A DNA stretch of 64,000 nucleotides from the NCBI GenBank assembly GCA_000004985.1, contig GG738845.1; one strand, written 5' to 3'. Every line of letters starts with the position of its first letter. The first letter of the stretch is position 1. The translations under genes and the position numbers were made by a program. The notes below the pieces were generated by a model. That model made no database searches. It was not told the origin of the DNA and saw nothing but the letters and a program-made list of their open reading frames with translations. This document shows, piece by piece, positions 1,709-55,385 of this stretch. The stretch comes from Naegleria gruberi (Eukaryota).

Positions 1709-3884
1709 TTAGTTACTAAGGGGTCTTATCAAATTGAGCAATGTTTTCACAGAATTAATTGTGAGTATGTTACAATCCTGTACTCGTGTTAGAAGACTGT
1801 TATCTTGAAACCTCTCTTGCATGGCTAGAATTAAATTGTAGTGAGTTTGGTATTTTTCAACTGTTGCCAAGTTTACACTCTCACTTTCATTTACTTGCAT
1901 TGGTTGAGTATTCGAGATGTAACCACATTTTTCTTTTTGATATTTCAAAAAATCCCATGCATTCTCTTGATTAAAGTTTTTGCTCTTTACATATTCATCA
2001 ACTATTGATAAAGTAGCCACCTCAACGTCACTAATAATCTTTGGTCTAGATTCTGTCAAAGTATTCTGAATTCTAAATAAACCAAAGTCTCTCTTTACAG
2101 ATGGATGGAAATTCCATTTTGTACCAGAAATTGCAACCATCAAACAAACATGGGCCATCCCCTCATAAGCATGTTTTTCCATGTTTTGACTTTTTTCTGA
2201 CTCTTTTTCTTCTTCGAACTTGAAAATTAAATTAATTCCAATTTTTGAAAGATTTGATAATAATTTTGAAGGATTAACCCATGTTTTTGTTATTTCTGCC
2301 AAAGAATCACTAAATGGAGAAAGGAGCTTACATTTATCCTTATTGATAAGGATAGTAATTTCCTCTATTGACTTAAACCCACTGTCTTGGTAATAATGTC
2401 TTGGACTAATTTTCAAAACAACAGCATCTCTCCCAAGAGAAGGAATAGGGAACAGTGTCCAATTTTCGAATGGCTTATCAAGATGTTTGTTCTTAATTGT
2501 TGTTAGAAATACATAATTTTTAAAACTTACATATACAACAGCTAGAGGACAGGTCAAATGGCTTGTTAAAAACCCTATTGTCTTTGACTCCAAGTCATAA
2601 AAAGTGTTTGCAATACCATCTGTTGACCAAATCTTTTCCTTTTCGTTCCACCATGCAATTGTTGGTTTATCTGACCTGAGCATGATGTTAGGAAGTGGAA
2701 TAACAACCTTGGCTGGTGGTCCCTCCACTTCTTGGTTTTCATTGTTGGTAATGGAATAAGCCTTTCGTTTGACATGGGTAGATAACTCTGTTATTTGTCT
2801 TATTTTCCATTCTTCGCAAGTGTTCACAATTGGTGGGATATGCACTATATCGATGGAAAAAACTCCTCCAATTACAATAAAGTTTTGAGGATGTGAAGAA
2901 GTAGAAGAATAAATGTCTTCCTTCAAGTACATTGCTCTAATTGCTATTTCTTGATATCCCATTCCTTTAATAGCCAATTCTACAATAACATTTAATTCGG
3001 GATATTCCACAAAACGAGTACTATTGGTAAAATGAATGTTATTGAGATATTAAAAAAATTACGTACAGATTTTTGGAAATATTGGTCCAAATGCCATACT
3101 TGATAAAAGGATGTACCTTTTGGTATTGGTCATTCTCAGAGGAAAGATACTTATCAAAATATTGCATAATATGAGCAGTAGCGTCATCCATTGTTTGAAC
3201 TATACAATTTGAAAGATAGTTCAAGTATTTTGTACAATGGGTTTCAAGATCTTTCTTGCTTTGTGCAATTGATTCGACTAATAAATATTCTATTTCATTC
3301 ATAACTTTACACCCTTCAACTACCATTGCAAAATCCTCGTTAATATTTCGTATTTCTTTTTTCAAAGCAAGCTCATTTAGATCACGCCATGAAGAAATAA
3401 AATTATTCATATCAACATCGTCATCAAGCTTTGGAAGATTTTCACAATTCACAAATTTGTTCCATTCGTCCTCTTCTTTAGCAACTATCATGAGAGTATG
3501 AAGCTTCTCTTTAAAGGAAGGGATAACTTCACTATCAAAAGATCCCTTTTCCTCATCCAATCTTTTTTTTTCCTCCTCTGCCTTCTTCCTTCTTTCCTCA
3601 TTAATTTTTCTCTCCTCTTCTTCCTTTCTTTTTCTTTCTTCTTCTTCCTCTTTCCTTATCCTTTCTTCCTCTTCTTTTCTTTGTTTTTCCTCTTCCTCCT
3701 TTTTCTTTTGTTCAAGTACTTTTTTTTGTTTAGCTGTTAGCTTTTCGCCTTTTTCTCCTTTTTCAGCCTTAGTTGATTTAGAGGATGATGGCTTGGACGG
3801 AGCCGATTGGTTTTTGGTTGGAGAGGCAGTTGTACTACTTTGTGTTTTTGCGCTTGTTGGTGGTTTAGGCGTGTTTCCTGGCAT
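1709..3884 (-). CDS. CASC1/IC97 (DNAI7)-like axonemal inner-arm dynein associated protein; 2 exons 3884..3067 and 3020..1709, about 709 aa
   Basis: ATG at 3884. N-terminal K/E-rich region then DEWNKFVNCENLPKLDDDVDMNNFISSWRD, collinear with the human CASC1 N-domain ([29 protein letters not shown]). A 46-nt intron (GTACGT...CAATAG, plus 3021-3066) joins the 281-aa ORF in phase 2 to the 433-aa ORF, which begins at GTG (not a real start). Total length matches human CASC1 (716 aa). Confidence 0.65.
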
Positions 3885-3900
3885 TTTTTTGATTTAACTT

Positions 3901-3914
3901 TTTGCCGCCCAAAA
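3901..3914 (-). promoter_or_regulatory. Palindromic-type GC box TTTGCCGCCCAAAA (reverse complement TTTTGGGCGGCAAA) 17-30 nt upstream of CASC1-like ATG (3884, minus strand)
   Basis: Variant of the E2F-like element; same 12-mer core as the 9511-9524 copy. Confidence 0.4.
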
Positions 3915-4011
3915 CTACAGCCCCTCCACTAAATTTTTGTAATTGTGTATTTATAATTCATTTGACATGTTTTGCATTGCTGTCTGACACCATCAACTAA
4001 TTACATTAAAT

Positions 4012-53718: not shown

Positions 53719-53820
53719 TGTTTGAAATCAATTTTTTTGAAAGAAGTGATTGAACAATAAAAATAAAGGCGGGAGAGATACCAGGACAGTTTGTAGAGTC
53801 AGTTTAAAATTCTGTTACAT

Positions 53821-53833
53821 TTTTGGCGGGAAC
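53821..53833 (+). promoter_or_regulatory. E2F-like GC box TTTTGGCGGGAAC, 26-38 nt upstream of IFT52 ATG; a second copy AAAGGCGGGAGAG lies at 53765-53777
   Basis: Two copies in the 140-nt divergent promoter shared by IFT52 and the 251-aa coiled-coil gene. Confidence 0.5.
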
Positions 53834-53858
53834 ATAACTACAACAACAAAGAAAAAAA

Positions 53859-55385
53859 ATGACGGAAATACAATCAAAGGGTTCTGAACAGTCTTCAAAG
53901 ACAATAATGTTCAATGTTTGTAAGAATGAGTACGGAACACCTAAAAACAACTTACAAAAGCTCTATAAAAAACTAAGGATGGAATATAAAACGATAATGT
54001 AAGTGATGATGACAATACAATTTCTAAAGAGTCCTGCAAATAGCAATGAAGAGGATTTTAACCTTGAAAAATTAAAACAAGCGGATTTGGTAATATTTTG
54101 TGGCCCTAGGTTGAAGTTTACAGAGCAAGAGGTACGTAAATTAATTTGGAATTTTCATACCCAACAATTGTAGTTTGCTGCCATAGGACAATATATTAAA
54201 GAGGGAGGAAGCGTGCTATTCCAATTAGGAGAGGGAGGTGAACCAAGATTTGAAACTAATATTAACTATCTTTTAGAAGAATGGGGTGTTTTCATTAATT
54301 CCGATACTGTGATCAGAACATCCTTCTTTAAATATTACCATCCAAAGGAAGTTTGTGTACAAAAGGGTGTGCTTAACAGATCAATTAATAGAGAGGCTGG
54401 TAAAGGAAACGATCTTGGTAGTGATTTATCAGATCCAAACTCTCACCTTACATTCGTTTATCCATATGGAGCCACTTTAAATGTTGAAAGTCCATCAACT
54501 GCCATTCTTGCTTCTGGGCATATTTCATATCCTGTTAATAGACCTGTATGTGCCTTTTATTCCTCCAAAAATGACAAAGGGAGAGTAGCTGTTATTGGAA
54601 GTGTTCATTTATTTGATGATAAGTGGCTGGAAAAAGAGGAAAACTCAGTTCTTCAAGATGTAATTTTCAAATGGCTGTTGTTTGGATTTGATTTGAATCA
54701 GATTGATGCAACTTCACCAGAAGTTAATGATTATCAATTCCTTCCTGATTCCAAATCACTTTCTGAAAAGGTTAAACCATGTCTACAGGAGAGCGAGGAG
54801 CTGCCCATTGATTTTACAGAATTGTTTGTGGACAAGATGTTTAAATTTGATACTGATTTGATACCTGAGGCTGTTAATTTATATGCTCAACTTGGTGTGA
54901 AACATTCACCTCTTACTTTGATTCCACCTGCTTTTGAAACTCCATTGCCGAGTTTAAGACCTGCAGTTTATCCTCCTTCACTTCGAGAATTTGCCCCTCC
55001 AGAAATTGACCTTTTTGATTTGGATGAACAATTTGCCTCTGAAGATGTTCGTTTGGCTCAACTCACTAACAGATGTACAGATGAGGATGCTGATTATTTT
55101 ATTCAGAAGGCTGGAGAAATTGTTGGTGTTACCAAATTATTGAAATCTGAATATTCTTTCAGTGCAAAACATATTCTTGAATTAATGTTTAGACAGATAG
55201 TGCAATTCAAGAAGGTTAATCCAAGTAATGAAGACATTTTGCCATCACATTTGAGGCACAATAAGGTTCTTCCAAAGTTGGCAAAAAATATTGAAACCAT
55301 ATCAAACCCTGTAACAAATCCTCCAACACCAATTTCTTCTCCACTCAGAGGAGGAAATTTGAGTGATGATGAATATGTAGATTAA
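53859..55385 (+). CDS. IFT52: Intraflagellar transport protein IFT52 (IFT-B core), 3 exons 53859..53998, 54032..54131, 54174..55385
   Basis: GEGGEPRFETNINYLLEEWGVFINSDTVIRTSFFKYYHPKEVCVQKGVLNRSINREAGK is near-identical to the human IFT52 GIFT domain; also ...LTFVYPYGATLNV...FYSSKNDKGRVAVIGSVHLFDDKWLEKEENS. N-terminal exons (TIMFNVCKNEY... / ...VIFCGPRLKFTEQE) are collinear with human IFT52. Introns of 33 and 42 nt. Confidence 0.9.

Follow-up and report, generated by a model that had tools for sequence, protein, structure and literature searches.

We analysed a 64,000-nucleotide window of the Naegleria gruberi NEG-M genome (scaffold_1:384001-448000, on a scaffold of 1,555,553 bp) in which genes for components of cilia and flagella lie among unrelated ones, most of the ciliary genes being preceded by an E2F-type promoter element, TTTSSCGC. 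An original prediction had described this interval as locally enriched in ciliary genes, and possibly as a co-regulated chromosomal neighbourhood. Positions are given throughout as window coordinates, that is, scaffold coordinates minus 384000, an offset taken from the general feature format (GFF) file of the Joint Genome Institute (JGI) gene models (Data S5 of Kennard et al., bioRxiv 10.1101/2024.01.08.573270). The G+C content of the window is 33% and its open reading frames (ORFs) are densely packed; Pfam scans of all ORFs, taken together with the JGI models, yield approximately 31 protein-coding genes and one tRNA-Ser, with 58.6 kb of coding sequence. Six of these genes are firmly ciliary, one is probably ciliary and one is a candidate, and some 23 unrelated genes, mostly housekeeping, lie between them on both strands. 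Judged by homology, the firm set (IC97, LRRC56, BBS4, an SDCCAG8/CEP89-like gene, DRC12 and IFT52) consists of unambiguous components of the axoneme, the intraflagellar transport (IFT) machinery, the BBSome or the centriole.

At the left end of the window lies the gene for IC97 (CASC1/DNAI7), the intermediate chain associated with inner-arm dynein I1/f (1709-3884, minus strand; exons 3884-3067 and 3020-1709; 709 aa). Its N-terminal ORF carries the Pfam domain Casc1_N (E 7e-41), and a 46-nt GT..AG intron (3066-3021) links this ORF in frame to a second one at 1709-3010. The span 1709-3884 is right, and JGI model 61231, which corresponds to the first exon only, is truncated. In a phmmer search of the PDB, the joined product matches Chlamydomonas IC97 (8glv_AE, E 4e-35) and human DNAI7 (E 2e-12), as well as two more IC97 chains over residues 229-708, such that the Casc1_N domain is followed by a colinear C-terminal region as in other members of the family. 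The next gene (4012-5985, minus strand; start at 5853 in the JGI model) encodes a leucine-rich repeat (LRR) protein that we assign to LRRC56/ODA8, a factor for the transport and maturation of outer dynein arms. It has Pfam LRR_9/LRR_4 matches and resembles just generic SDS22-type LRR proteins in the PDB; in a search of 5.8 billion proteins, all of its named relatives outside Naegleria and Willaertia are LRRC56 (E 1e-53 to 1e-43). An SDS22-type LRR with a cap is thus combined with best matches to LRRC56 orthologues, and the curated JGI label of the gene, FM140, places it among the flagellar-motility-associated (FM) families.

The BBSome subunit BBS4 is encoded at 22633-24000 on the plus strand. 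The product is a full-length tetratricopeptide repeat (TPR) protein that lies nearer to BBS4 than to BBS8 or other TPR proteins, with E 1.6e-128 for human BBS4 (6xt9_D) versus E 1e-17 for BBS8 in the phmmer comparison with the PDB. Towards the other end of the window, the gene for the IFT-B core subunit IFT52 (53859-55385, plus strand; exons 53859-53998, 54044-54131 and 54174-55385; JGI label FM6) encodes all three Pfam domains of this protein, IFT52_GIFT, IFT52_central and Itf52_C, and its orthologues in Naegleria fowleri are 86% identical. Head to head with it lies DRC12/CCDC153 (52963-53718, minus strand; named so in UniRef), a subunit of the nexin-dynein regulatory complex, whose sole PDB match in phmmer is the colinear CCDC153 chain of an axoneme structure (8th8_S, E 2e-16).

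The sixth firm gene, jgi_61243 (38403-40770, plus strand; 4 exons, 747 aa), encodes a centriolar coiled-coil protein resembling SDCCAG8 or CEP89. On its own it has no sequence match in the PDB and scores weakly against the Pfam family CCCAP (SDCCAG8; E 0.047). When 1.84 billion representatives were searched exhaustively with phmmer, 68 relatives with E<1e-10 were returned, most of them full-length and colinear; five of the ten full-length relatives that were tested exceed the CCCAP cut-off, and the Willaertia orthologue has a precomputed match to PF28159 (CEP89). With either assignment, CCCAP or CEP89, the product would be a centriole-distal ciliogenesis protein.

Two further genes are assigned with less confidence. 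The first, JGI jgi_61240 (27031-30476, plus strand), encodes a Kelch beta-propeller fused to two p25-alpha/TPPP-like repeats, with Pfam matches to Kelch and to p25-alpha (E 4.8e-10). The second repeat is weak (E 0.023) and lies in the ORF 30126-30473, which ends at 30476 and which the JGI model treats as an intron, continuing instead into a terminal exon (30541-30666) that codes for an implausible hydrophobic tail; with this repeat inside the supposed intron, a 3' end at 30476 appears more plausible than the JGI model. The p25-alpha part weakly resembles FAP216, a protein of the Chlamydomonas central apparatus (E 8e-7), and we propose that the fusion protein is probably ciliary. The other is a coiled-coil ORF at 7201-9453 on the minus strand (750 aa from the first ATG at 9453; the ORF extends over 7201-9498), which is missing from the JGI GFF and has neither a Pfam family above threshold nor a match in the PDB. 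Its promoter motif alone makes it a candidate ciliary gene. Pfam scans and PDB sequence searches returned nothing for jgi_56451, a 2490-aa protein and jgi_61247, and these are uncounted here; jgi_56451 was considered as a ciliary gene and set aside, as it shares a 96-bp promoter with the SDCCAG8-like gene yet has no ciliary homology.

The identities and coordinates first proposed for IC97/CASC1, BBS4 and IFT52 are thus borne out by the domain and homology matches, and the LRR protein, initially placed in a broader DNAAF1/LRRC56 class, turns out to be LRRC56/ODA8. The p25-alpha/TPPP fusion had been called cilium-specific; the domain is indeed present, and a ciliary role is probable only. Three further coiled-coil genes were said to carry a common promoter motif, and we found sites at all three, two of which (DRC12/CCDC153 and the SDCCAG8/CEP89-like gene) proved to be ciliary.

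The sites resemble the binding element of E2F, written TTTSSCGC, and take TTCCCGCCAAA as their typical form; distances are counted from the ATG. The element is found as TTTGCCGCCCAA (3901-3912) approximately 20 bp upstream of IC97, as TTCCCGCC (6111-6118) 126 bp upstream of the LRRC56 ATG at 5985, and again as TTTGCCGCCCAA (9511-9522) approximately 60 bp upstream of the ATG at 9453 of the coiled-coil ORF. Upstream of BBS4 it reads TTTCCCGCCAAA (22585-22596), about 47-48 bp from the ATG and approximately 8 bp past the stop codon of the preceding gene, CCDC93; the entire BBS4 promoter, including the site, fits into the 55 bp (22578-22632) that separate this stop codon from the BBS4 ATG. The SDCCAG8-like gene has TTCCCGCCAAA (38360-38370) 43 bp upstream of its ATG at 38403, in the 96-bp spacer common to it and jgi_56451. 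Finally, the 140-bp spacer between DRC12 and IFT52 contains two sites, TCCCGCC (53768-53774) 50 bp upstream of the DRC12 ATG and TTCCCGCCAAA (53822-53832) 34 bp upstream of that of IFT52, one beside each gene, as would be expected of two fused autonomous promoters. All sites lie 16-126 bp upstream of an ATG and occur in both orientations, so that the element is promoter-proximal and orientation-independent. Aligned, they read TT(T/C)(C/G)CCGCC(A/C/T)WWW; those of IC97, the coiled-coil ORF and BBS4 are perfect matches to TTTSSCGC, and those of LRRC56, the SDCCAG8-like gene and both DRC12/IFT52 sites are one base of the T-run away from it. An E2F-like site is therefore present at seven of the eight ciliary genes counted here. 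An Sp1-like GC-box (GGGCGG) was considered as an alternative description, and is found in two sites only (IC97 and the coiled-coil ORF), whereas the E2F pattern fits all.

These sites are rare elsewhere in the window. The core SCCGCC occurs seven times versus 1.87 expected in 64 kb, and 7/7 copies lie in promoters of the ciliary genes, which together span 827 bp, or 1.3% of the window; neither the coding sequence (58.6 kb) nor any other promoter of the window contains a copy. For TCCCGCC, five copies are observed versus 0.45 expected, and for TTSSCGC ten versus 2.37, six of the ten in these same promoters. At least five of the seven SCCGCC copies fall in only four promoters (IC97, LRRC56, BBS4 and DRC12/IFT52), whose genes had been recognised from their homology before attention turned to the motif (P ~1e-9). 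Correspondingly, in an unbiased enumeration of 6- and 7-mers that compared promoters of homology-defined ciliary genes with other intergenic regions, CCCGCC and TCCCGC rank first, although P for a single test goes no lower than 0.0014, given 6 versus 18 regions. No site was found upstream of the genes for triosephosphate isomerase (TIM), the HSP70-like protein (HSP70L), PHF5, CDC73, BOP1, TspO, AP sigma or BCD1. A literature search combining Naegleria with E2F, promoter or motif found no report of the element.

We compared the orthologous loci of N. fowleri, N. lovaniensis and Willaertia magna, each with 10-kb flanks, and found the element in promoters of both other Naegleria species. In N. 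fowleri, IFT52 is likewise preceded by a site at -34, which reads GGCGGGAAA, though the upstream neighbour of the gene differs. The BBS4 promoter of this species has TGGCGCCAAAAC at -45, versus TTTCCCGCCAAAAC at -47 in N. gruberi, GGCGCCAAAAC being found there at the same distance as the N. gruberi site, and its DRC12 promoter has TTGGCGCC. Upstream of LRRC56, an identical 26-nt block (GCGCCAAAAATTTACTGAAAAAACAA) is common to N. lovaniensis and N. fowleri, with the E2F-like GCGCCAAAAA kept in both. In pairwise promoter alignments the element stands out as a conserved island amid diverged sequence. Nine TTSSCGC matches occur in the ~116 kb of N. fowleri and N. lovaniensis loci, and five of them lie within 1.5 kb upstream of six orthologues (P ~4e-8), five of these six orthologues having a site. 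In Willaertia, the SDCCAG8-like gene is the sole one of four orthologues with E2F-like sites, two of which precede it, at approximately -90 and -60. Some sites in these loci lie beside other genes: on JBEGDK010000089.1 of W. magna (position 16421 of the fetched locus) a perfect E2F-like site, TTTTGGCGCG, stands directly upstream of an actin-family gene, and more E2F-like sites in the Willaertia and N. fowleri loci adjoin Nup192 and uncharacterised genes without a Pfam match.

In these relatives the genes themselves are dispersed. BBS4, IFT52 and DRC12 of N. fowleri lie on three separate contigs of 540-840 kb. DRC12 is kept in a CDC73-PHF5-DRC12 block in N. fowleri and N. lovaniensis, where an HSP20-like gene and others, not IFT52, adjoin it. 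IFT52 of N. fowleri lies near TIM and RIC1, on another contig than DRC12, and the IFT52-TIM-RIC1 order is likewise kept in W. magna, where the gene upstream of IFT52 is unrelated. BBS4 is near Nup192 in both N. fowleri and Willaertia, and its N. gruberi neighbours are all absent there; LRRC56 adjoins neither IC97 nor the coiled-coil ORF in any of the three relatives; and the neighbours of the Willaertia SDCCAG8-like gene differ from those in N. gruberi. When 30 window proteins were searched with tblastn against all fetched loci, the only shared blocks were CDC73-PHF5-DRC12(-BOP1) and IFT52-TIM-RIC1. The linkage of ciliary genes expected of a functional cluster is thus absent from three related species, and the N. 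gruberi arrangement therefore brings together, in a way specific to its lineage, at least four ancestral blocks.

Expression during differentiation was taken from an excerpt of the RNA-seq table of Kennard et al. (Data S2), to which all expression values given here are limited; it covers three genes of the window, BBS4, TIM and the HSP70-like gene. BBS4 rises steeply, with log2 fold changes (log2FC) of 9.2, 11.5, 11.4 and 10.2 at 20, 40, 60 and 80 min of differentiation, and FM-class genes elsewhere in the genome are induced 2^8 to 2^13-fold. TIM, which adjoins IFT52, stays flat, and the HSP70-like gene declines to a log2FC of -1.7, so that the two non-ciliary window genes with values in the excerpt do not follow a domain-wide induction. 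In a sample of 33 rows of this table, two genes (6%) are induced more than 2^5-fold and seven are flagged as up in differentiation; according to the same study, 6,389 genes change more than 2-fold during differentiation. Among the other rows of the excerpt, those for mcm4 (AKG0012), Apc6 (AKG0015) and Rb (AKG0048) show a transient induction with log2FC of approximately 2.2-2.4 at 40 min, and the N. gruberi actin gene jgi_29087 is induced with log2FC 4.8. Induction of MCM4 and Rb, which are classical E2F-type targets, during a differentiation that is free of division would fit with E2F activity at this time.

To judge the bunching, we assumed that the ciliome makes up 3-5% of all genes, which gives 0.9-1.6 ciliary genes expected per 31. 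For a window chosen beforehand, the binomial probability of at least 7 in 31 is 3e-5 to 7e-4, and that of at least 8 is 3e-6 to 1e-4. For one picked out of an entire genome, a scan statistic is the relevant measure. When 15,727 genes were placed in random order and the richest 31-gene window was scored, a window with at least seven ciliary genes appeared in 11% of the runs if 500 genes were taken as ciliary and in 84% if the number was 800; one with at least eight appeared in 1.4% and 29%, respectively. If the strict curated FM class alone is counted, two genes of the window qualify, versus approximately 0.65 per 64 kb on scaffold_1 (at least nine in the first ~880 kb); the genome mean is approximately 0.27 FM genes per 64 kb. 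The window thus contains more ciliary genes than would a random stretch of 31 genes, but the excess is nominal and not established genome-wide.

The remaining genes of the window are mostly housekeeping genes: those for a DEAD-box helicase, TspO, AP sigma, an HSP70-like protein and CCDC93; BCD1, an FKBP, Sec61beta, a TFIIIC B-block subunit, a kinesin-like/PH (pleckstrin homology) protein and an RCC1-like protein; and BOP1, CDC73, PHF5, TIM, RIC1, a GCFC-like protein and SNAPC3. Several JGI gene models were corrected within this interval. CCDC93 (20634-22577) and BCD1 (24430-25518) are unannotated, the HSP70-like gene (10247-12787) is split into jgi_29076 and jgi_4180, and the FKBP gene (25523-26809) is cut to a 300-bp fragment, jgi_5012. 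In jgi_77716 (56413-62715), RIC1 is fused with the GCFC-like gene across the tRNA-Ser gene (60214-60294). An unannotated Sec61-beta gene of two exons (30899-31020 and 31065-31149, plus strand; 68 aa; Pfam Sec61_beta, E 1e-14) sits inside a supposed 685-bp 'intergenic' gap that precedes TFIIIC. The kinesin-like/PH protein, jgi_61244 (41370-44858, plus strand), has a kinesin-like P-loop region (GAHQSGKTYTLFG) at its N-terminus and a PH domain at its C-terminus, in addition to a long coiled coil; it has no Pfam kinesin match and may be a degenerate kinesin. At its 5' side, a small intron-containing ORF (MSVDEKIYAEKIKTFGHGFIRYLNTIDDAFGKYFDK; 40834-41369, plus strand) is not in the JGI GFF.

Collectively, these observations lead us to favour, with moderate confidence, a dispersed regulon in which every gene carries its own E2F-type site, the proximity of the genes in N. 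gruberi being a lineage-specific rearrangement most likely without regulatory meaning. The ciliary genes form transcription units of their own, on either strand, and every firm gene, like the candidate ORF, has its own E2F-type element within ~130 bp of the start codon. Their joint switch-on at the amoeba-to-flagellate transition would then most likely come about because the same sequence-specific factor reads every promoter, and this factor is probably a protein of the E2F/DP family. Rearrangements specific to the lineage have gathered the ancestral synteny blocks, at least four in number, in N. gruberi. A promoter-proximal element at each gene would explain co-induction wherever the genes lie. 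An operon or polycistronic unit was considered and rejected: the members lie on both strands, unrelated genes stand between them, and each has its own upstream site. What we infer, then, is a role of the motif in driving induction, its binding by an E2F/DP protein and the neutrality of the proximity.

The binding by E2F/DP is predicted from the match to the consensus, the ancestry of E2F, DP and Rb, the induction of Naegleria Rb and MCM4, and the role of E2F4/5 in vertebrates. E2F, DP and Rb have been reported from Excavata and inferred to have been present in the last eukaryotic common ancestor, and a Naegleria Rb homologue is annotated, this being the gene that is transiently induced in the expression excerpt. 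Naegleria is without RFX, FOXJ1 and XAP5, and the regulators of its cilia genes are yet to be identified according to a 2025 review (PMC12183034). Only tentatively, and judging the chances to be a little short of even, do we propose that E2F/DP, or another reader of TTTSSCGC, directly activates the regulon of flagellar and basal-body genes in Naegleria, which comprises structural axoneme, IFT, BBSome, dynein-assembly and centriole genes.

Several observations weigh against a dispersed regulon with neutral proximity. The Kelch/p25-alpha gene is without a canonical site and has just a variant with one mismatch (GGTGGCAAA at 26972). By the strict pattern, three of the four Willaertia orthologues and the DRC12 gene of N. 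lovaniensis are without a site. The expression evidence comes from three window genes within the excerpt. Lastly, seven to eight ciliary genes in 31 are well above the number of 1-1.5 to be expected in an arbitrary window, and pure chance is an uncomfortable explanation unless the window was picked from many. The per-window probabilities could instead reflect a modest genome-wide tendency of co-expressed genes to lie close together, through spill-over of open chromatin or retention of head-to-head pairs and involving no dedicated domain. Two pairs of adjacent ciliary genes, IC97-LRRC56 in tandem and DRC12-IFT52 head to head across their short spacer, would fit such a tendency, as would the density of FM genes on the first ~880 kb of scaffold_1, which is higher than the genome mean. 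Yet neither pair is kept in the sister species, approximately 1.8 adjacent pairs are expected by chance when 8 of 31 genes are ciliary, and TIM, directly beside IFT52, is not induced according to the expression excerpt; we regard this tendency as an unlikely explanation, if one with a real claim to attention.

The original prediction went further, towards a co-regulated chromosomal neighbourhood, which would here be specific to N. gruberi and selected: a chromatin domain or enhancer-sharing unit that opens at differentiation, the rearrangements that gathered its genes having been favoured. The enrichment itself could be read in this way, seven copies of the motif lie within 50 kb, and an arrangement derived in N. 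gruberi could be a recent assembly. However, linkage is lost in the relatives, each gene has its own promoter-proximal site that unlinked orthologues retain, and the many unrelated genes are interspersed on both strands; no repeat or boundary feature was seen in the window. Co-expression of neighbours during flagellar induction had been suggested as a check, and within the expression excerpt it speaks against such a unit, as BBS4 rises ~2^11-fold and neither TIM nor the HSP70-like gene is co-induced. The neighbourhood claim is not supported, and a selected domain seems to us quite improbable. At the other extreme, there may be nothing to explain, the excess being an artefact of a generous definition of 'ciliary' and of window bounds chosen afterwards. 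The contrast is small for the strict FM class (two genes versus ~0.65 expected locally), most random genomes with 800 ciliary genes contain a window as rich as this one, and the Kelch/p25-alpha gene and the coiled-coil ORF are not proven ciliary. But six genes are unambiguous by strong homology and all six carry the same rare motif, which makes an artefact of this kind the least probable of the explanations weighed here. The claim of enrichment stands for the window taken by itself, and does not clearly survive comparison with random gene orders, 11-84% of which contain a window with at least seven ciliary genes.

As a gene cluster, the interval therefore represents ordinary lineage-specific bunching, with no sign of domain-level control, and it would be wrong to take it for a functional cluster; the promoter element is the more interesting lead. 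If the proposed activation by E2F/DP or a similar reader is true, the link of E2F to centriole and cilium biogenesis would be ancient and no vertebrate invention, and the motif could be used to predict new ciliary genes, the coiled-coil ORF at 7201-9453 being an example. Should the element generalise genome-wide, it would offer a handle on how several hundred genes are switched on when a cell assembles its basal bodies and flagella de novo in the space of an hour, a means of predicting uncharacterised ciliary genes, and possibly an early evolutionary origin for ciliogenesis driven by E2F.

Neighbourhoods of co-expressed genes are well known in eukaryotes, such as adjacent pairs in yeast, testis-gene clusters in Drosophila and clusters of housekeeping genes in mammals, and they occur in worms too; they were reportedly reviewed by Hurst, Pal and Lercher in 2004. 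The Naegleria window is similar in that related, co-induced genes lie closer than naively expected and include a head-to-head pair with a short spacer. It differs in that linkage is lost within the genus, the non-ciliary genes with values in the expression excerpt are not co-expressed, and a promoter-proximal motif at each gene, not its position, would explain the co-regulation. A closer parallel in subject is the 'uni' linkage group (XIX) of Chlamydomonas, where many loci for basal bodies and flagella have been mapped (PMC2120091, PMC2288942). Both cases present an apparent chromosomal concentration of such genes in a flagellate protist; the Chlamydomonas one concerns a whole linkage group defined from mutant loci, for which no shared cis-element has been implicated, whereas the Naegleria one spans 64 kb and is evolutionarily unstable.

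For the element itself, the obvious comparison is with the E2F cis-element of plants and animals, TTTSSCGC, which occurs for instance as TTTCCCGCCAAA in promoters of S-phase genes. Sequence, position near the gene start and use of either orientation are alike, but the targets here are ciliary rather than DNA-replication genes, and the window has no cell-cycle gene. In multiciliated cells of vertebrates, E2F4/E2F5 together with Multicilin/GEMC1 drive centriole amplification and ciliogenesis (PMC12183034). There too, an E2F-type site marks centriole and cilium genes that are co-induced in a non-dividing cell, and the basal bodies of Naegleria are likewise made de novo. The vertebrate factors, however, act mainly on centriole-biogenesis genes and on FOXJ1/RFX, which then drive the structural cilia genes, while in Naegleria, without RFX, FOXJ1 and XAP5, the predicted site lies directly on structural, IFT and BBSome genes. 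The ciliary regulon of animals that is controlled by RFX through the X-box, with DAF-19 in Caenorhabditis elegans and RFX also in choanoflagellates (PMC10530576), uses a motif different from TTTSSCGC and a family of factors that is absent from Naegleria. It nevertheless offers the same logic, in which dispersed ciliary genes are recognisable by a short promoter-proximal motif that can serve to predict new ones.

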